Shown here piece by piece: positions 27,318 to 42,222 of a DNA stretch of 64,000 bases (within the stretch, counting starts at the first letter, position 1; each line of letters begins with the position of its first letter). Location of the stretch: sequence record PV660452; one strand, 5' to 3'. This DNA comes from Escherichia phage LF82-9. The notes beneath the pieces are model-generated. The model searched no databases. It was not told where the DNA came from and saw nothing but the letters and a program-made list of their open reading frames with translations. Both the position numbers and the translations under genes were made by a program.

Positions 27318-27531
27318 AAGGAATTTCCTCATCGGTGACAAGGTCATATTCGACCAATTGGATAGGCTCGTTAATACCATATCCACGTACAGTGATATCG
27401 GTTGTCGGATATTTTCCAGTAATATCACCCATTCTAAATGCTTCAGTGAATGATTGCTCACCTGAGCAACTAAACCAGGCGGCAAAACATTTTAAAACAT
27501 CTTCAGACCCTTCTATAATCAATTTAGCCAT
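27307..27531 (-). CDS. Hypothetical protein (74 aa)
   Basis: ORF track. Confidence 0.45.
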   Translation of the reverse strand: MAKLIIEGSEDVLKCFAAWFSCSGEQSFTEAFRMGDITGKYPTTDITVRGYGINEPIQLVEYDLVTDEEIPYVD

Positions 27532-27893
27532 TATAGACTCTCAGTAAAGGTACGAGCGATAACGTCGCGCTGCTGTTCCGGAGTCAGAGAGTTAAAGCGA
27601 ACTGCATAACCGGATACACGAATGGTCAGCTGAGGATATTTTTCCGGATGCTTAACTGCATCTTCCAGAGTTTCACGACGCAGAACGTTAACGTTCAGGT
27701 GTTGACCACCTTCAATTTTAACTTTAGGTTGATGTTCAATTTCAATTTCACGGGCATGTAAACCGTAGAAAATTTCCGGGTCTACAATAGCGTCTTCTTT
27801 AAAAGTCTTAGAGACGATAATCCGGGCTTGAGTACCATCTTCAAAATAAATAGTGCCTTTATGTACACCTTCAAGAATTTGATATGCTTTCAT
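27531..27893 (-). CDS. Autonomous glycyl-radical cofactor (GrcA/YfiD-like; T4 Y06I-type)
   Basis: C-terminal ~65 aa ...[60 protein letters not shown] carry the RVSGY glycyl-radical motif and match E. coli YfiD/PflB C-termini from memory; N-terminal half unrelated. Confidence 0.8.
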
Positions 27894-27899
27894 ATAACC

Positions 27900-28208
27900 T
27901 CAATTAGAAAATAAATTTATCCAAGTTTTTTCTTTAATCAAAAATGGGTCGGAATTAAACGCCATTAAACTTTGAGTGATTAATCCCTTAAACGGCCCAT
28001 CAATAAATTCCATTTTGAAATGCGGAATACTAGTCATCAACCGTGCATTAGGAGCAGTACAAAGAACCTGCTGCCCCGCGAAAGGACCTTTAGTCAAACT
28101 GTATCGTTTAGGTTTAAAATGGTAAATCTCATAATTTTCTACAAGAGCCCTTTTATTGCATACTGGGCTGTTATAACAATATTCAAAAACTTCAATAGTG
28201 GTCATCAT
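27900..28208 (-). CDS. Hypothetical protein (102 aa)
   Basis: ORF track. Confidence 0.45.
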   Translation of the reverse strand: MMTTIEVFEYCYNSPVCNKRALVENYEIYHFKPKRYSLTKGPFAGQQVLCTAPNARLMTSIPHFKMEFIDGPFKGLITQSLMAFNSDPFLIKEKTWINLFSN

Positions 28209-28745
28209 TGCATTCCAATCACAAAAAATTGAGGACGAGCATTACCGCCGATGCAATATTTGCTTTTGCAACAGTGTTGGACTGTTTTAATATGGACATT
28301 GTAAATCTTATCCATATCAGGAGCTTTAATAGGCTCGTCAATTATGTACAGAATACGAGAAAGCGTTAATCCACGGAATTTAGAACCTTCATTGCCAATA
28401 AAACTACGGACAGAATCGGTAAATAAACGGAATCGAATATCATCGCTAGAATAACGAGAAAATTCTTTTTTTAATGTTGCCAGCAGAAATTTTAGCATAG
28501 GCTGAAGTATTAGAAAGAACAATAACTGTTCCACCATCATACAGCCAATTAGCAGCAAAGTTAGTCACAGCAATTGATTTACCTGATTGTCGGCCGCCGT
28601 CTAAACGAAGTGTACAGTACTGCTTGAGTACGTCTTCAAACGGTGGGATATAACCGTTCTTACAAATTTCTTCTACTCTAGCATCAGAATGGTGTGTAAA
28701 AGCATTCATCAGGGATAGATAAGGTCCAGTTAAAAATGTTCTCAT
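28205..28745 (-). pseudogene. P-loop NTPase gene split by a frameshift at an A7 run (Walker A and Walker B in different frames)
   Basis: Frame 1 (28446..28745) ends ...GGRQSGKSIAV...GNIKKRIFSLF*; frame 2 continues ...EFSRYSSDD...ILYIIDEP...; switch at the T7/A7 homopolymer 28476-28482. Confidence 0.5.
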
Positions 28746-28826
28746 TTAGTTTCTCTTTTAGGTTGGGCCATTCCGTGGCGCATGAATTGTCCATTTCTGT
28801 ATTTACCCCTCTAAGTAATTATGAAT

Positions 28827-28856
28827 ATACTATCACAATTCTAGGAGAAAGTAAAC
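28827..28856 (-). promoter_or_regulatory. Early promoter (GTTTAC-N18-TAGTAT)
   Basis: Minus strand GTTTACTTTCTCCTAGAATTGTGATAGTAT. Confidence 0.5.
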
Positions 28857-34992: not shown

Positions 34993-35348
34993 TTTCTACA
35001 TTCCTTAATAAAGTTTTCTATTGTTTCATTTTCACGTCTAGCTAGGAGTTCATTATAACTAATCATTTGAGAAGCGTAAACCTTTTTATTTTTCTTGTTA
35101 TGGTTTATAAAATCGTAGTAAAAATAGACTACAGTACAAAATGATGCGATGGATGCAAAGGCTTGAGTATATCGTAAGTCCTGCCATTGGTCTGTGAATC
35201 CACCGGTGTTCCCTATAAATCCTAACACAACTCCGTCAATAAGAAATCCAACTAATCCAAAGGCAAATCCCATGCCAATACTCATAATAAAAATTAGAAT
35301 GTTCTCACCGAGAGAAGGCCGTACGGTTAAGAGTTGAGGCTTTTGCAT
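34989..35348 (-). CDS. Hypothetical membrane protein (119 aa) ending in ENFIKECRK
   Basis: Two hydrophobic helices; shared C-terminal motif. Confidence 0.5.
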   Translation of the reverse strand: MQKPQLLTVRPSLGENILIFIMSIGMGFAFGLVGFLIDGVVLGFIGNTGGFTDQWQDLRYTQAFASIASFCTVVYFYYDFINHNKKNKKVYASQMISYNELLARRENETIENFIKECRK

Positions 35349-35722
35349 CTTATTTCCTTAACGAATTCCATAGCTTCTTCATATTCATACTTTTTAACAG
35401 CTTCAACATACTGAGCTTGGGCTTTTGCGCACTGAACTTTCCACTCGCGAACTCGAGCTCTGTGATGACGGCCTTGGTGCCAATATCCTGCCCAATTAAT
35501 AGGCATTAATAAAAACGGTACAATAAGTGGTGCGACGAACATTAATGAAAACGCTGCATCAGACGTTATAACTTTATTGGAATCTAAAATAGCTCCTATA
35601 ATCATAAAGATTAAAAATGCTAAAGCTAAAATAGGGCCAAATAGTACTTCGTTTGGGATTAATTTACGTTTGTATTCGTATGCCCAGGGCTTAATTGGCA
35701 TGTACAGGGTTGGCTTTGACAT
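35327..35722 (-). CDS. Hypothetical membrane protein (131 aa) ending in MEFVKEIRC...
   Basis: ORF track 35327..35752 trimmed to ATG at 35722; hydrophobic helices. Confidence 0.45.
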   Translation of the reverse strand: MSKPTLYMPIKPWAYEYKRKLIPNEVLFGPILALAFLIFMIIGAILDSNKVITSDAAFSLMFVAPLIVPFLLMPINWAGYWHQGRHHRARVREWKVQCAKAQAQYVEAVKKYEYEEAMEFVKEIRCKSLNS

Positions 35723-36308
35723 ATTCTCTACATTCCATAATAAATTGCTCAAGGATTAAATTGTTAGTGAAATTAGGACTAACAACCATAGTTTCATAAA
35801 GCGCATCAATAGCACTTAAAGCATCAACTCTTTTAAGCAAAGGCTTGCCTTCATACATAGTTTCAGAATCGATGATTAACGTAAAGTAATATTTTTTATT
35901 ATCGACTAGAACTTCTGTATCGATATAAAACATATTAGACCTCAGAAGCTTATCTCTAAAACCATAATAATCTTCTGAACGTTCGCTGATATATTCCCAT
36001 TCAGTGTTTAAACAACAAACAGACCATGTAGGAGCAACGAAATCAGTGAATCTAATATCATGGTCTGCAACTAGTTTAGCAATAGCTCCGATATCATGAA
36101 TCATAATACCTGGGGCTAATAAAGATTTTCGGCGATTTGCGTATTCAGTTGTCTCATAAGAAGCTGACCAGTACCATTTACGTCCAGTTGCAACATATCG
36201 TAATGAATCAACTAAAGACGTAGGTGGATTTACCTTATCTCGGAACTCTTCGAACATTGAGTCAATATCATTATTTTGGTTTCGCATGTTAACTCCTTTA
36301 TTATCCAA
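35691..36308 (-). CDS. Hypothetical protein (205 aa) ending in EQFIMECREY...
   Basis: ORF track. Confidence 0.55.
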   Translation of the reverse strand: MDNKGVNMRNQNNDIDSMFEEFRDKVNPPTSLVDSLRYVATGRKWYWSASYETTEYANRRKSLLAPGIMIHDIGAIAKLVADHDIRFTDFVAPTWSVCCLNTEWEYISERSEDYYGFRDKLLRSNMFYIDTEVLVDNKKYYFTLIIDSETMYEGKPLLKRVDALSAIDALYETMVVSPNFTNNLILEQFIMECREYVKANPVHAN

Positions 36309-36336
36309 AAGGAGGACCGGAGTCCTCCGTATTATT

Positions 36337-36930
36337 TTATTTCAAAGAGTTAATATATTCTTGTACATCAGCAGAAGTGGTTTCGACACCGGCTGGAGTA
36401 CCATTGAACGTTTCAACACGAGTCAGAGTGTCTTCGATATCAACCTTAGTCAGTGCAGCGATTTCAATTACATCATCGGCCGTAGAGATACCAAGGGCAT
36501 TGGCTGCTCGAGTTTCACGAATGTATTCGAGTTTGATTGCCAGGTTCTGACGAGCATCGTCAAGTTCAACCACCTTACGAGCAATTTCAATTCGCATAGC
36601 GGCATACCCGTCAGCTTTTGTATTAAGTTGTTCGGCAGTTCGACGATACAGAAGACCAAGCTTAGCATGCATGGTAACATCTTGTCCTTCAGCCAGGAGC
36701 TTACGAATTTCACGTTCCTTAGAAGCGGCTTGCTTGTTCTTTTCATTAACAAGTTCGCGAATACGTTTTTCTTCATTAATAGATTTAACAGAAGCCGTTT
36801 TTAGTTCTTTGATCTGGGTAATCAACTTATCTGCAGCTGCGTTATACTGTTCTTCGACAGTCAGATTTTTAGCCATAGCAGTACCCAGTTTAGTGCGGAT
36901 AAATTCAACAAGTTTCTTCAGTGTGTTCAT
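36337..36930 (-). CDS. PspA/IM30-like all-helical coiled-coil protein (197 aa); assignment tentative
   Basis: Length and continuous heptad-rich composition resemble the PspA/Vipp1 family; ATG at 36930 with SD AAAGGTAA. Confidence 0.4.
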
Positions 36931-36971
36931 ATTATTACCTTTCAATTGGTGGTTTATTATCCAATGAGAGC

Positions 36972-37000
36972 ATTATACTCTGCTCTCAAGAGTTTGTAAA
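36972..37000 (-). promoter_or_regulatory. Early promoter (TTTACA-N17-TATAAT inside GAGAGCA/TGCTCTC stem); near-identical to 6869-6905
   Basis: Minus strand TTTACAAACTCTTGAGAGCAGAGTATAATGCTCTC. Confidence 0.55.
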
Positions 37001-37228
37001 TTATTTTTTAATCAAATTGACATAAAACTTGGCGTCTTCGGGGTGCATGCCTTCGCAGTATTCTTCAACCATGAAATTCTTAACAGCTTCATAAGGACCA
37101 CTCAGATTAAGCTCAGTTGTCCAAAACTTGGAATCTTGGACTGAATCGATACGAACTTCAGGATGACGATTGCGAATAACTTCTTCGGTGTATTCATAAT
37201 CAACGACATCAATACTAACTTTAGCCAT
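37001..37228 (-). CDS. Hypothetical protein (75 aa)
   Basis: ORF track. Confidence 0.45.
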   Translation of the reverse strand: MAKVSIDVVDYEYTEEVIRNRHPEVRIDSVQDSKFWTTELNLSGPYEAVKNFMVEEYCEGMHPEDAKFYVNLIKK

Positions 37229-37258
37229 TTTGTTTCTCCTCTTGATTTGATGTGATTA

Positions 37259-37287
37259 CTATAACATAAACGTACTTAGATGTAAAT
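37259..37287 (-). promoter_or_regulatory. Early promoter (TTTACA-N17-TATAGT)
   Basis: Minus strand TTTACATCTAAGTACGTTTATGTTATAGT. Confidence 0.5.
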
Positions 37288-37441
37288 TATTTCAACGTCA
37301 CCTTTAGCGGCTTTATAACCTTCAGCCCAAGATACAACAGAGTTTTTATCTGAGGATTCAAATTCAGGCATTGGACTTTCACCAATATTCACACAGTATG
37401 TTTCTTCATTTTCATCGAACCAAATAATTAAAGTAGTCATT
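37277..37441 (-). CDS. Hypothetical small protein (54 aa); below ORF-track cutoff
   Basis: Manual translation MTTLIIWFDENEETYCVNIGESPMPEFESSDKNSVVSW... Confidence 0.35.
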
Positions 37442-37470
37442 TTGTTTACTCCTTTGTAGTTGATAAGTCT

Positions 37471-37499
37471 ATAGTATCACCATCCTTGGTGCTTGTACA
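37471..37499 (-). promoter_or_regulatory. Early promoter (TGTACA-N17-TACTAT)
   Basis: Minus strand TGTACAAGCACCAAGGATGGTGATACTATAGACTTATC. Confidence 0.45.
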
Positions 37500-37502
37500 C
37501 AA

Positions 37503-37766
37503 TTATTTCATATTATTGAAATATTCTTCTGCGATTTCGTCGTTATCATGGTAAACTTTAGAAGACAGTTTAACATAACCTTCTGCCGTGAACATGTTAA
37601 TCACAACCTTTACAGTATACCACTGACCGTCTTCATTACCCATTACTGCGTAAGTTTCAAACATCGGATGATCAGGACCAATAACTTTAATATCATTCAC
37701 TGTACGACCGAAATCTTCTGAAACACATTTCATAAAGAAGTTGAACAGTTCGCCGTAATTATCCAT
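37503..37766 (-). CDS. Hypothetical protein (87 aa)
   Basis: ATG at 37766 with SD GGAG. Confidence 0.45.
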   Translation of the reverse strand: MDNYGELFNFFMKCVSEDFGRTVNDIKVIGPDHPMFETYAVMGNEDGQWYTVKVVINMFTAEGYVKLSSKVYHDNDEIAEEYFNNMK

Positions 37767-37809
37767 TTCATTCTCCAAATTGTTTTCTGTATCAGTAGTT
37801 GATAGTTGT

Positions 37810-37839
37810 ATAGTACCATGGAAGAACAGGGATGTAAAC
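37810..37839 (-). promoter_or_regulatory. Early promoter (GTTTAC-N18-TACTAT)
   Basis: Minus strand GTTTACATCCCTGTTCTTCCATGGTACTATACAACTATC. Confidence 0.5.
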
Positions 37840-37975
37840 AGTTTTGTGAAAAAATTTTTTAAAAAGTTTTAGGGAATTCTAGGGTCAGGAGGGACAATTA
37901 AAAGGTAGGATAATATATTATAAAGGGTATAAACTAAATGATGCCCAGAGAGGCCCGGAAAGGCCTAGATACCAA

Positions 37976-38000
37976 AAAGCCCCAACCTTTCGGCTGGGGC
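37976..38000 (-). terminator. Intrinsic terminator (GCCCC/GGGGC family) after the internal-protein gene
   Basis: AAAAGCCCCAACCTTTCGGCTGGGGC; U-run on the minus-strand RNA. Confidence 0.7.
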
Positions 38001-38008
38001 TAAGAATG

Positions 38009-38482
38009 TTATATGATTTGTTTAGCAGACCAAATGCGGTCTTTAATAATTTTTTGGATGTCTTCAACATATTCAAGAGAGTGAACATGTGGGTTATCTT
38101 TGAAACTATAAGCACGAGCTAGCTTTTGGCCTTCAGTTTTGATTATCAAAAGTTCTTTAAGAATTGCTTCATACCTAGAGATAATTCCTTTAGCAATATT
38201 TTTTTCTTGTGCTGCTTTAGGGTCAGCCTTAGGAGCAGGTTTACCTGAAGCCTTTGCAAAAGCAGCTCCAGTAGCAACTAAACTTTTCCAAGCCATACTA
38301 ACTGCATTCCCTGTAAATCCTTCGGCTTTCATATCACGAGCAAATTGGAATCGTGATTCATCGGAAGCATCTTTATAGGAATATTTACCCGCGGCAATGG
38401 CAGCTTTTGCAACAGCTTGAATTTCAGTGCTAGATGCTTCATTTAACACCGCTTCATTTAAAAATTGAGCATATGATTTCAT
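38009..38482 (-). CDS. Internal-protein-like with capsid-targeting leader (MKSYAQFLNEA), 157 aa; late-promoter driven
   Basis: Leader similarity; A/K-rich body; TATAAATA upstream. Confidence 0.6.
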   Translation of the reverse strand: MKSYAQFLNEAVLNEASSTEIQAVAKAAIAAGKYSYKDASDESRFQFARDMKAEGFTGNAVSMAWKSLVATGAAFAKASGKPAPKADPKAAQEKNIAKGIISRYEAILKELLIIKTEGQKLARAYSFKDNPHVHSLEYVEDIQKIIKDRIWSAKQII

Positions 38483-38518
38483 CTTATTTCCTGTTTTAAT
38501 TCGTGGTTTTAATATACT

Positions 38519-38526
38519 TATTTATA
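38519..38526 (-). promoter_or_regulatory. T4-type late promoter TATAAATA
   Basis: Exact consensus on the minus strand ~37 nt upstream of the ATG at 38482. Confidence 0.5.
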
Positions 38527-38529
38527 CTA

Positions 38530-38556
38530 AAAAGCCCCAACCTTTCGGTCGGGGCT
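38530..38556 (-). terminator. Intrinsic terminator (GCCCC/GGGGC family)
   Basis: AAAAAGCCCCAACCTTTCGGTCGGGGC; U-run on the minus-strand RNA. Confidence 0.7.
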
Positions 38557-38560
38557 AAGC

Positions 38561-38760
38561 CTTGCGGCAACCTTGTCGGGGTTCCACCTGCTAAGGCAAG
38601 TGTTTGTACGAAACGCCGGGATTCGAACCCGGTTATTAAGCAGTTGACGCTACTCAATATTTTTAAAAGGCCATATCTCGACCATATCCGAACGTTCCGT
38701 CAAAAACGCTACTCGGCTTACGGCAAAGATATTTCCTCGAATCGATAATTCGGTGCGCCG
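38561..38760 (-). ncRNA. Candidate small stable RNA / tRNA-like remnant (T4 species-1/2 RNA region analogue)
   Basis: No plausible ORF; canonical tRNA T-arm CCGGGTTCGAATCCCGG at 38616-38632 (minus) without a full cloverleaf; ends at a terminator. Confidence 0.3.
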
Positions 38761-38843
38761 TTTCTGCTGTGATGTAAGAGGGCATCAATAAACGCAAAGA
38801 TTATTAACGCAATTCCTTACTCAGGGAACATCAGTCCGACGAC

Positions 38844-39398
38844 TTACCGGTAGCGACCCGGTTTCTCATTTGGTATTTCAAATTGTGTAGATTTAGTATC
38901 TAATTTTTTAACTATGGAACTTATGTCATGAAAGAAAAACCATTCACCATTTATATGGTCCTGATTATAAATGCTGTGCATATATTTTTCAAGTTCTACT
39001 GCATCCTGGGAATATCTAAATGATACTATTTTAAAACTTTTAAACGGTGAAAATGTATTTGCTGTTATAACTCTAACATCAGGTTCTATACTTCTTCCTA
39101 TTTTATAATAATTAGGATTTGTAGTATCTACCATTATGTATACGAAAGCCTGTCGATAGCTTTTTTCTATATCAAATTCATCTTTAAATTTCAAAAGATT
39201 TAGGGCGGCAGTCCTACAAAATACTTTCCATTTTGACAAGCGTTTGGCTTCAGTCATAGAAAAGAATTTTTTCTTATCTGTTATTTTAAGAAAAGCAACA
39301 TTTTCAATTAGTTCTTGTGTTATTTCAAAATTACCATGGTATATTAATCCAGCTTTTATAGCCAAATTAATTTGGTCCCAGTCTACATCACTTCTCAT
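38844..39398 (-). CDS. T5orf172/GIY-YIG-like domain protein (184 aa) adjacent to the tRNA cluster; possible seg-type endonuclease relative
   Basis: Motif FVYIMVDTTNPNYYKIGRS resembles the GIY...YIG/T5orf172 core, but in the middle of the protein. Confidence 0.4.
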   Translation of the reverse strand: MRSDVDWDQINLAIKAGLIYHGNFEITQELIENVAFLKITDKKKFFSMTEAKRLSKWKVFCRTAALNLLKFKDEFDIEKSYRQAFVYIMVDTTNPNYYKIGRSIEPDVRVITANTFSPFKSFKIVSFRYSQDAVELEKYMHSIYNQDHINGEWFFFHDISSIVKKLDTKSTQFEIPNEKPGRYR

Positions 39399-39419
39399 AA
39401 TATTATTCTCTCAATAATT

Positions 39420-39496
39420 TGGTCAGGGTGAAAGGATTCTAACCTTTAACCTGCGGTTTAGAGGACCGCTACTCTATACAATTGAGTTACACCCCG
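39420..39496 (-). tRNA. tRNA-Arg (anticodon UCU)
   Basis: Manual cloverleaf: anticodon stem GCGGT/ACCGC, loop CCUCUAA, T-arm AAAGG-TTAGAAT-CCTTT, encoded CCA. Confidence 0.7.
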
Positions 39497-39622
39497 TAAT
39501 TAGTTCACAGCAATACCTACTCCAACAATCAAGATGTCTTCACACGAAATTAAGAGAAGTGTGATCAGTTCAACCCCTATAATCGCGTCAAGTAGATATT
39601 AATGTGACAGTTGTCACAAGTT

Positions 39623-39697
39623 TGGCGGACATGCATGGATTCGAACCATGGACCAATTGATTAACAGTCAACTGCTCTACCACTGAGCTACACATCC
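39623..39697 (-). tRNA. tRNA-Asn (anticodon GUU)
   Basis: Manual fold: D-arm GCTCAGTGGTAGAGC, anticodon loop CUGUUAA, T-arm CATGG-TTCGAAT-CCATG, encoded CCA. Confidence 0.65.
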
Positions 39698-39701
39698 AAA
39701 T

Positions 39702-39788
39702 TGGTGGGGAGTGGTGGAGTCGAACCACCCGAGTCGCAATGACAATGAATTTACAGTCCACACCGCTACCTCTACGGGATAACTCCCC
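39702..39788 (-). tRNA. tRNA-Tyr (anticodon GUA), long variable arm
   Basis: 87 nt; acceptor GGGGAGT/ACTCCCC, anticodon loop CUGUAAA, T-arm GGTGG-TTCGACT-CCACC. Confidence 0.55.
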
Positions 39789-39794
39789 TTAATT

Positions 39795-39869
39795 TGGTGG
39801 CCCTGGGTGGAATTGAACCACCATCTGGCGATTATGAGTCGCTTGCTTGAACCTTCCAGCTACAGGGCC
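39795..39869 (-). tRNA. tRNA with CAU anticodon (Met or lysidine-modified Ile)
   Basis: Acceptor GGCCCTG/CAGGGCC, anticodon loop CUCAUAA, T-arm GGTGG-TTCAATT-CCACC, CCA encoded. Confidence 0.65.
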
Positions 39870-39870
39870 T

Positions 39871-39946
39871 TGGTGCTGATTAACGGAATCGAACCGCCGA
39901 CCTTCTCATTACAAGTGAGTTGCTCTACCTACTGAGCTAAATCAGC
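39871..39946 (-). tRNA. tRNA-Thr (anticodon UGU)
   Basis: GCTGATTTAGCTCAGTAGGTAGAGC...CUUGUAA...GGCGG-TTCGATT-CCGTT; matches T4 tRNA-Thr architecture. Confidence 0.8.
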
Positions 39947-39951
39947 AAAAC

Positions 39952-40041
39952 TGGCGGAGGCGATAGGATTTGAACCTATGAGTCGCCGGAGCGACTGCCG
40001 GTTTTCAAGACCGGTGCATTAAACCACTCTGCCACGCCTCC
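39952..40041 (-). tRNA. tRNA-Ser (anticodon UGA), long variable arm
   Basis: GGAGGCGTGGCAGAGTGGTTTAATGCACCGGTCTTGAAAACCGG... matches T4 tRNA-Ser. Confidence 0.85.
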
Positions 40042-40043
40042 AG

Positions 40044-40117
40044 TCTCCATACAAGGATTTGAACCTTGGACCTCCTGATCCCAAATCAGGCGCTCTACCA
40101 AACTGAGCTACACGGAG
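40044..40117 (-). tRNA. tRNA-Pro (anticodon UGG); 3-prime CCA not encoded
   Basis: Anticodon stem-loop CCTGA-TTTGGGA-TCAGG; T-arm CAAGG-TTCAAAT-CCTTG. Confidence 0.75.
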
Positions 40118-40127
40118 TAAATTAAAT

Positions 40128-40201
<74 letters not shown>

Positions 40202-40206
40202 AAATT

Positions 40207-40293
40207 TGGTGCGAGAAGTGGGACTCGAACCCACAAGGAAATCATTCCGCAGCATTTTAAGTGCTGTGCCTTTACCAATTTGACCATTCTCGC
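40207..40293 (-). tRNA. tRNA-Leu (anticodon UAA)
   Basis: GCGAGAATGGTCAAATTGGTAAAGGCACAGCACTTAAAATGCTGCGG...GGGTTCGAGTCCCACTTCTCGCACCA matches T4 tRNA-Leu. Confidence 0.88.
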
Positions 40294-40294
40294 G

Positions 40295-40367
40295 CTGGGA
40301 ATAAAGGACTCGAACCTTTGCATCCTGGAATCAAAATCCAGTGCCTTACCAACTTGGCTAATTCCCA
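40295..40367 (-). tRNA. tRNA-Gln (anticodon UUG); CCA not fully encoded
   Basis: TGGGAATTAGCCAAGTTGGTAAGGC...CTGGA-TTTTGAT-TCCAG...GGTTCGAGTCC resembles T4 tRNA-Gln. Confidence 0.8.
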
Positions 40368-40453
40368 ATTATTAACAAAGGCTCTCAAACAAGAACCCTT
40401 GATGATAGAGGGTATTAATCAGTGCGGTATAAGTTAATAATAACAAATAATTC

Positions 40454-40969
40454 TTAAAGCAAATTAAACATCTTAACGGTCGGCAAAACAATTTCTTCTT
40501 CTATATAAGAGTATTTAACACTCTCAACTACACGCAAAAAATCATAATCATAATACTCAGAAGCATTACCTAAAATATTAATAAGTCCTTCAAGCACTTT
40601 ATTACCATTCACAAAGAATAAGTCAAATACACGTTCTTCATCTTCTTCAGATTTATTACCAAGGTCAACTTCTATATCAAAGACCTTTTTAATGAATTCT
40701 GGATAAAGTTGGTCTGAGAACAGTCCTTCAACCAAGTATTCATAGATAAAAAGCGATTGCTCACTGAACGAAGCATTACCACAATAGTGATCAACTTTTG
40801 TGCTAGAATGACGGCTTTTAAACTTCTTTAAAAGATATTGGAATTGTAAGATTTCATGCTCTTCTACACCAAACAATGTTTTGGTTTTATAGTTGTCACC
40901 GTCATTTTCCCATGTAGTTACATCAATCACATAACCCTGCGGAATTGTAGTACCTAAACAAATATTCAT
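40454..40969 (-). CDS. Hypothetical acidic protein (171 aa)
   Basis: ORF track. Confidence 0.5.
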   Translation of the reverse strand: MNICLGTTIPQGYVIDVTTWENDGDNYKTKTLFGVEEHEILQFQYLLKKFKSRHSSTKVDHYCGNASFSEQSLFIYEYLVEGLFSDQLYPEFIKKVFDIEVDLGNKSEEDEERVFDLFFVNGNKVLEGLINILGNASEYYDYDFLRVVESVKYSYIEEEIVLPTVKMFNLL

Positions 40970-41259
40970 TTGCTCACCATATTAATGTAAGTATATTCAA
41001 TACATTCAAGACCCAAAGGATTCTTGAAAATATCATATTCAAGAGGACCTTTTTCCGTTTCAATAAAGAAATCAAAATTTACTGTATTAAATTTACGGTC
41101 TTCCTTCACTAATTTAACTTGAGAAGATGAACGGTCAACATAAACCTTTTCAACTTCAAAACACGTTAAAACGCCATAATCATCAATCAAGGCTTTAGCT
41201 GCTTCTTGATCATATTTATATCCATTTTCAATGGATGATACTTTTGCATAAAGAATCAT
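40966..41259 (-). CDS. Hypothetical protein (97 aa)
   Basis: ORF track; coupled overlap. Confidence 0.45.
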   Translation of the reverse strand: MILYAKVSSIENGYKYDQEAAKALIDDYGVLTCFEVEKVYVDRSSSQVKLVKEDRKFNTVNFDFFIETEKGPLEYDIFKNPLGLECIEYTYINMVSK

Positions 41260-41261
41260 TG

Positions 41262-41672
41262 TCAGCCTCTATCAACGATAGCATGAGTATGGGCATTTAC
41301 GATTTGCCACCAGTCGAAACGATTGGAACCATAATCTGGTTTATTTTCATTTTCTTTAATGATATCACGCAGCTTATCTTCTGTTTCAGCATACGCAATT
41401 AAATCATCATATCCACCGCAAGGATAATAATTATCACCTGCGAATAAAAGAAAATTTACCTTAGATGGATTTACGTAATAATGGTCTTTAGGATATTTAG
41501 TTCCTCTCCAATCAGTTACTTCAACATAACGGTAAGAAAATCCATTTTTACTTTCAATCCAACTCCACGCTTCAAAAGGAGTATTAAAAACTTTATCAGG
41601 TATTAAATTACCTTCAAAATGAGAAGGATTTGCATAATCCCCAGCATAAACATAATATTCGTTAATACTCAT
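41262..41672 (-). CDS. Hypothetical protein (136 aa), Y/W-rich
   Basis: ORF track. Confidence 0.5.
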   Translation of the reverse strand: MSINEYYVYAGDYANPSHFEGNLIPDKVFNTPFEAWSWIESKNGFSYRYVEVTDWRGTKYPKDHYYVNPSKVNFLLFAGDNYYPCGGYDDLIAYAETEDKLRDIIKENENKPDYGSNRFDWWQIVNAHTHAIVDRG

Positions 41673-41858
41673 TTATTCACCTTTAGAAATTTTATCCATA
41701 ACGATAGTGATTAAACCAATTAAAAATGCTACTACAAGTGAAAAAACATTTTCTGCTGTAGTTAATAATCCGCATATAAATCCAACAAACATTGAAAAAC
41801 TAAAAGCAGAAGCAGAAATTGCAATAGCAACATTTCGAATTAATTCACAGCGTTTCAT
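41673..41858 (-). CDS. Hypothetical small membrane protein (61 aa)
   Basis: Two hydrophobic helices. Confidence 0.45.
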   Translation of the reverse strand: MKRCELIRNVAIAISASAFSFSMFVGFICGLLTTAENVFSLVVAFLIGLITIVMDKISKGE

Positions 41859-41886
41859 TTTATTCTCCTCAGTAGTTGATAGGGTA

Positions 41887-41916
41887 ATAGTATCACAACT
41901 AAAACCCTATGTAAAC
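41887..41916 (-). promoter_or_regulatory. Early promoter (GTTTAC-N18-TACTAT) with TAGGGT/ACCCTA stem
   Basis: Minus strand GTTTACATAGGGTTTTAGTTGTGATACTATTACCCTATCAAC. Confidence 0.55.
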
Positions 41917-41934
41917 AACTTTGTGAAAAATTTA

Positions 41935-42222
41935 TTACAAAAGATTTTTAGCAATAATTTTAAGCTGAGCTACTGAAATATGCTTGGCTTTAAACAAAGC
42001 AGTTTCTTCAGCAGGGGAGATAACGATTGTAGCACCATCTTTCTTAGCGGACCATCCATCACCAAGGTAAACAGTACCTTTGACTTCTTCTCCATCAACC
42101 AGGCTAATCATCGGTTTACCTTCACGTCCTTTGTTTGCTTTAATAACTTCGGAAGTAAGGGTCGCTTCGGTCAGAGTAGAAACGTTAGCATCAGGTGATA
42201 TAAATTCTTTATAGGTTTTCAT
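41935..42222 (-). CDS. Internal-protein-like (IPI-position) with capsid-targeting leader (MKTYKEFISP), 95 aa
   Basis: Leader similarity; sits just upstream of 57B as ipI does in T4. Confidence 0.6.
   Translation of the reverse strand: MKTYKEFISPDANVSTLTEATLTSEVIKANKGREGKPMISLVDGEEVKGTVYLGDGWSAKKDGATIVISPAEETALFKAKHISVAQLKIIAKNLL

Follow-up and report, generated by a model that had tools for sequence, protein, structure and literature searches.

The model by which replication slippage adds or removes a base in a mononucleotide run comes originally from work on T4 (cited in PMC12606429). In the classic Streisinger-type frameshifts, those of the T4 lysozyme gene and of rII, the lesion is the gain of one base within such a run. 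A second kind of known system is the programmed +1 frameshift site. At the sites of E. coli prfB and of yeast Ty1 (CUU-AGG-C), the P-site codon re-pairs in the +1 frame and a rare arginine codon follows. The gene described here belongs to a family represented in T4 and RB69 by vs.8 (phrog_1488), on which a literature search found no relevant paper.

Thirteen Mosigvirus phages have been isolated on E. coli LF82 (PMC12509680). Their genomes were obtained from triple-plaque-purified stocks by Illumina MiSeq sequencing and SPAdes assembly, with a coverage of 154x for LF82-09 (PMC12509680). The genome of LF82-09 (PV660452) comprises 170,850 bp with 10 tRNA genes, and that of LF82-01 (LF82-1 in the alignments below) 169,999 bp with 2 tRNA genes (PMC12509680). 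We analyzed 64,000 nucleotides of the LF82-09 record, referred to as the window, with attention to a gene that is split between two frames. The window derives from a T4-like phage, a member of Mosigvirus.

Reading frames of the split gene

Two overlapping ORFs in different frames of the minus strand carry the Walker A and Walker B motifs of a P-loop NTPase. A preliminary description of the locus had reported this arrangement, and it is borne out both by the ORFs and by their matches to phrog_1488. The first ORF (28446-28745, minus strand) begins with an ATG at 28745 and consists of 93 native codons and then six in the wrong frame (RIFSLF), after which a premature TAG (28446-28448) ends it, giving a product of 99 aa. 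As had been noted, this frame ends within eight codons of the switch. It contains the Walker A motif, or P-loop, GGRQSGKS (28575-28598, minus strand), which lies within a DGGRQSGK segment that is invariant in the family alignment. The second ORF has a mechanical extent of 28558-28205 (minus strand; 117 aa) and overlaps the first. The part of it that constitutes the 3' portion of the gene, in the +1 frame (EFSRYSS...FFVIGMQ), spans 28205-28465 on the minus strand and ends with a TGA at 28205-28207. This portion includes the Walker B motif ILYIIDEP (28331-28354, minus strand), identified from the family alignment, with the hhhhDE pattern and the conserved catalytic Glu that ASCE ATPases typically have. 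The switch between frames does occur at seven A residues in the mRNA (plus strand T7). However, the run is located at 28466-28472 (minus strand), ten bases away from the position first reported (28476-28482). Intact relatives have A6, GA5 or A5G at this site.

The 99-aa product matches positions 2-94 of the phrog_1488 profile (E = 9e-39), and the product of the second ORF matches positions 87-177 (E = 8e-35). When the two frames are joined, residues 3-180 align with positions 2-177 of the 177 in the profile, with E = 3.4e-77. That the two ORFs are halves of one gene is confirmed far beyond chance. We also translated edited versions of the run. The A6 version encodes one protein of 179 aa and the A9 version a protein of 180 aa, and the A8 version reads into a third, closed frame. 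Removal of one A, as in the intact relatives, restores the frame, and so does the addition of two; the single added A that had been proposed does not. Similarly, the intact product is 179 aa in length rather than the approximately 190 aa first estimated. Members of the vs.8 family are encoded by one unbroken ORF of about 172-185 aa, which the window allele lacks.

We considered the second ORF as a separate gene and rejected this assignment, as no relative has an independent conserved version of it and it has no Walker A motif. Relatives encoding two separate functional proteins here, a case named in the preliminary description, were not found, and the well-annotated relatives have one ORF at the locus. 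The two-CDS annotation in phage CAU_ECP01 was likewise rejected as support for a separate second gene, since a gene caller simply produced it from the same A7 lesion.

Identity and genomic context

The locus is recognizable from its sequence as the T4-type early accessory gene vs.8 (phrog_1488). The orthologue is annotated as vs.8 in RB14, RB69 and mar005P1, and the joined frames are 90% identical to the T4-type vs.8 of RB14. The gene lies upstream of a vs.7-like gene, which directly follows it (27900-28208, minus strand), and of a gene for a GrcA-like glycyl-radical protein. It lies downstream of the lysozyme gene e, denV and internal-protein genes. The position of vs.8 between the ipII/denV genes and the vs.7 and GrcA-like genes is the same in LF82-1, SHSML-52-1, RB14 and a metagenome contig. 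The glycyl-radical gene, of the GrcA/YfiD-like autonomous cofactor type, is found at 27531-27893 (minus strand), two genes downstream of vs.8. Its counterpart is annotated GrcA in SHSML-52-1, and a match to PF01228 is present in a related contig.

The normal stop codon of vs.8 overlaps the start codon of the next gene (ATGATGA, 28205-28211, minus strand). The premature stop occurs 240 nt earlier and may reduce translational coupling to the vs.7-like gene. Upstream of vs.8, the window has a short ORF beginning MDNSCATEWPNLKEK (28684-28794, minus strand) whose frame differs from that of vs.8. The ATG of this ORF is in frame in Tequatrovirus-type relatives, with the result that gene callers give a Vs.8 of 194-196 aa, of which the start in those phages is putative. 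A possible T4 early-type promoter is found further upstream (28827-28856, minus strand), with GTTTAC and TAGTAT separated by an 18-nt spacer containing TG, although it scores below the consensus-scan threshold.

Family and fold of the Vs.8 protein

The restored protein matches 1009 phage records by tblastn, and the gene is a single ORF in about 1000 T4-like records. A word-indexed search of 5.8 billion proteins returned 29 clusters, nearly all of 172-196 aa. Only 56, almost all of 160-185 aa, came from a full profile search against 1.84 billion representatives. Given the few clusters found in these two large searches, the Vs.8 proteins form a small family that is restricted to phages and whose members stand alone. 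No named family scored above threshold in Pfam, NCBIfam or PADLOC, and the best match in a PDB sequence-profile search was not significant (E = 0.13). Several GenBank records describe vs.8 as 'endoribonuclease', 'RegB domain-containing' or 'terminase large subunit', including those of CAU_ECP01 (L003:1955-2495), HY01, slur11 and the Klebsiella phages Roth04 and M198. Neither Pfam nor NCBIfam supports the endoribonuclease, RegB or terminase labels.

In the family alignment the DGGRQSGK segment, Arg113 and Arg124-Gly125 are invariant, and IIDEP and the C-terminal FFVIGMQ are conserved; invariant residues are found on both sides of the frameshift. A structure model was made for an intact homologue that is 96% identical (P0001) and stands in for the restored protein. 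The model consists of a single alpha/beta domain that spans the break, and Foldseek agrees. Because invariant residues flank the break and a single domain extends across it, the 99-aa fragment is not expected to be a complete ATPase. The full-length protein is a single-domain ASCE (RecA-like) P-loop ATPase, with a Walker A of the form GxxxxGK[ST], a Walker B hhhhDE with the catalytic Glu, and a RecA-like alpha/beta core.

The protein had initially been likened to terminase-like or kinase-like ATPases. The first comparison holds for the fold, but Vs.8 is terminase- or helicase-like in fold only and is neither a terminase nor kinase-like. Its identity to the ATPase domain of the large terminases (T4 gp17, Sf6 gp2, P74-26 TerL) and to the RecA1 domains of SF2 helicases is 8-20%. 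Unlike these proteins, Vs.8 is a single domain of 179 aa, without a nuclease domain and without a second RecA domain. We took a terminase large subunit to be a protein of about 450-650 aa with an ATPase model match above threshold and a C-terminal nuclease domain. Vs.8 scores 13.6 bits against Pfam Terminase_6N, for which the cut-off is 22, and has no C-terminal nuclease domain, and it was rejected as a terminase large subunit. A genuine terminase is annotated elsewhere in the sister genome LF82-41. Assignment to the SF2 helicases was rejected as well, since these require two tandem RecA-like domains where Vs.8 has one domain of 179 aa.

Comparison with the LF82 phages

The closest relatives of the window are eleven LF82 phages, all of which carry an identical gene with A6. 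The comparison among orthologues is between A7 and A6 rather than between A7 and A8 as first proposed. In LF82-1 vs.8 is annotated as one CDS of 540 nt, and the window allele differs from it by run length alone, with the stop six codons past the run. Window positions 1-35081 align to LF82-1 with 99.949% identity and 17 mismatches, and the one gap is the extra A in vs.8. Positions 41935-64000 align with 99.878% identity and two compensating gaps only, at the edge of a divergent block. Over the about 57 kb in which the window and LF82-1 are nearly identical, no other isolated homopolymer indel was found. As the extra A is the sole isolated indel relative to this phage, the assembly shows no general tendency toward homopolymer errors.

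The divergent block between these two segments (35081-41935) is 80-97% identical to LF82-1 or unaligned, and is 847 bp longer than its LF82-1 counterpart. The window has ten tRNA genes at 39420-40367 on the minus strand (Arg-tct, Asn, Tyr, Met, Thr, Ser, Pro, Gly, Leu and Gln), compared with only two in LF82-1. The block resembles a tRNA region replaced in mosaic fashion between phages that are otherwise 99.9% identical.

Run-length alleles in other phages

An exact match to the A7 95-mer across the site is present in one of 163 close records, that of CAU_ECP01. Among the best 60 of these 163, the corresponding span is 94 nt in 58 cases, 93 nt in ECCR664 and 95 nt in CAU_ECP01. The junction peptide with its out-of-frame tail is likewise restricted to CAU_ECP01 among 589 records. 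Phages sb4 and WFbE185, which gave junction-peptide matches, were considered as further frameshift alleles and rejected; both have intact 540-nt genes. The A7 gene of CAU_ECP01 is 97.6% identical to that in the window, with 13 differing positions. Because of these 13 differences, and because the A6 gene of LF82-1 is otherwise identical to the window gene, the two A7 alleles are independent. A second single-base indel occurs in CAU_ECP01 (L003:1523) in an intergenic position upstream of an ipII-like gene, where it has AAAC-AAC and SHSML-52-1 and LF82-1 have AAACAAAC.

Shorter runs were also found. Phage ECCR664 (OL631257.1 83204-84096) has A5 at the run and, towards the 3' end of vs.8, T5 in place of T6; the gene is left unannotated. 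The ECCR664 record (L006) has a length of 134 kb and only 100 features. This double homopolymer deletion looks like sequencing error in a low-quality assembly. A natural -1 allele is provided by a Tequatrovirus-type metagenome contig that has A5 at the run and an otherwise intact downstream vs.8 frame. It was recovered from ENA ERZ28647358 scaffold_6 (L030:1501-1866) and from Logan ERR10206110 and ERR10206111 (L031, L032), all from the same study.

An exact-pattern scan of IMG/VR identified the A6 pattern in four true vs.8 loci. In the same scan the A7 and A5 patterns matched unrelated DNA only, and no vs.8 locus with A7 was found. In many relatives the run is interrupted, as GAAAAA in SHSML-52-1 and JS09 and as AAAAAG in RB14. 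Considering that A6 alone occurs in the true IMG/VR vs.8 loci and that so many relatives have an interrupted run, the run is not selected as a slippery site. These alleles show it to be a site of recurrent indels.

Origin of the frameshift

The most probable explanation is that vs.8, a gene for a 179-aa ASCE ATPase, has undergone a genuine and very recent A6-to-A7 insertion, likely by replication slippage, which has left a dispensable gene with a null allele. Slippage at the mononucleotide run by the Streisinger mechanism would convert A6 to A7. The mutant would produce a 99-aa fragment that retains Walker A and lacks Walker B, the invariant Arg and Gly residues and the C-terminal core strand. 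Loss of ATPase function would be expected because these parts are missing, and the fragment is probably inactive. Given plaque formation by the phage and the existence of further frameshifted alleles, vs.8 is apparently dispensable under plaque-forming conditions. This view also leans on what is generally known of the T4 regB-denV region. It is possible that some full-length protein is still made by leaky expression, through a +1 shift of the P-site tRNA-Lys on AAA-AAA-AGA. Of the three readings offered in the preliminary description, recent pseudogenisation at a homopolymer is the one retained; sequencing error is disfavored and programmed slippage is rejected.

Homopolymer-length errors at vs.8 do reach the databases, as the poorly annotated ECCR664 record illustrates with its A5 and its T5 in place of T6. 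The LF82-09 phage itself might therefore have A6 and an intact vs.8, with the extra A a homopolymer miscall in the consensus. Exact look-up found neither the 99-aa product nor the restored protein on record, and the lack of any other occurrence of the exact 99-aa product would fit such a miscall. However, the extra A is the only isolated indel in the near-identical alignment to LF82-1, the sequence was obtained with Illumina reads at 154x, and the same pipeline gave A6 in 11 sister genomes. A run of seven is short for an Illumina consensus error, which at such coverage is unlikely. We consider a miscall unlikely, and infer that the extra A is in the phage DNA rather than in the base calls.

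The occurrence of independent +1 and -1 alleles at one run in at least three lineages, in a neighborhood of accessory early genes, raises the question of whether the run serves as an on/off site, with vs.8-null phages favored on some hosts, for example where a host defence senses the ATPase. The frequency of such alleles is very low, with a handful among about 1000 records, which fits neutral slippage in a dispensable gene. In addition, a defence-related signal for Vs.8 was sought with PADLOC and none was found (best E = 0.04). Selected loss therefore seems very improbable. We give as little credence to a fuller version, in which the run is a contingency site whose slippage alleles are kept as loss of the ATPase pays on sensing hosts, and low-level +1 frameshifting may supply a trickle of full-length protein.

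The least probable reading is that full-length Vs.8 is made from the A7 gene by +1 ribosomal frameshifting, or through the loss of one A in transcriptional slippage, so that the proportion of short and long products is regulated. On AAA-AAA-AGA the P-site tRNA-Lys can re-pair perfectly in the +1 frame to give a product identical to wild type, and AGA is rare in E. coli. However, AGA is not starved here, as the phage encodes its own tRNA-Arg(UCU). The 101 nt from the run onwards have no stimulatory structure (-16 kcal/mol, z = -0.46 versus shuffles). Efficient slippage by RNA polymerase usually needs runs of about nine or more, for which A7 is too short. Given also that the two-frame layout is not conserved (the junction peptide in 1 of 589 records and the A7 95-mer in 1 of 163, with no A7 locus in IMG/VR and GAAAAA and AAAAAG variants of the run itself), programmed recoding is hardly credible.

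Comparison with known systems

The probable slippage mutation in vs.8 is a clean natural example of the Streisinger type in a T4-like phage and matters little alone. It would indicate that a conserved, phage-restricted ATPase can be lost in a plaque-forming isolate. LF82-01 and LF82-09 constitute an A6/A7 isogenic pair that could be used to examine the phenotype of vs.8. The two ORFs are best annotated as a single, disrupted vs.8 gene, and the 'endoribonuclease' and 'terminase' labels are unsupported.

Compared with vs.8 of T4 and RB69, the window allele is of the same family and has the same synteny, and it differs in that one extra A breaks its frame. As at the prfB and Ty1 sites, its P-site codon is able to re-pair in the +1 frame, and a rare arginine codon comes next. 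However, the window allele has neither a conserved shifted architecture nor a stimulator, and the phage carries the cognate tRNA-Arg(UCU). A further parallel is with the classic frameshifts of T4 lysozyme and rII. As in those cases a T4-like genome has gained one base in a run, both +1 and -1 alleles are found at the vs.8 run, and no difference in mechanism is evident. What the locus carries is an ordinary frameshift allele of a known conserved hypothetical gene.
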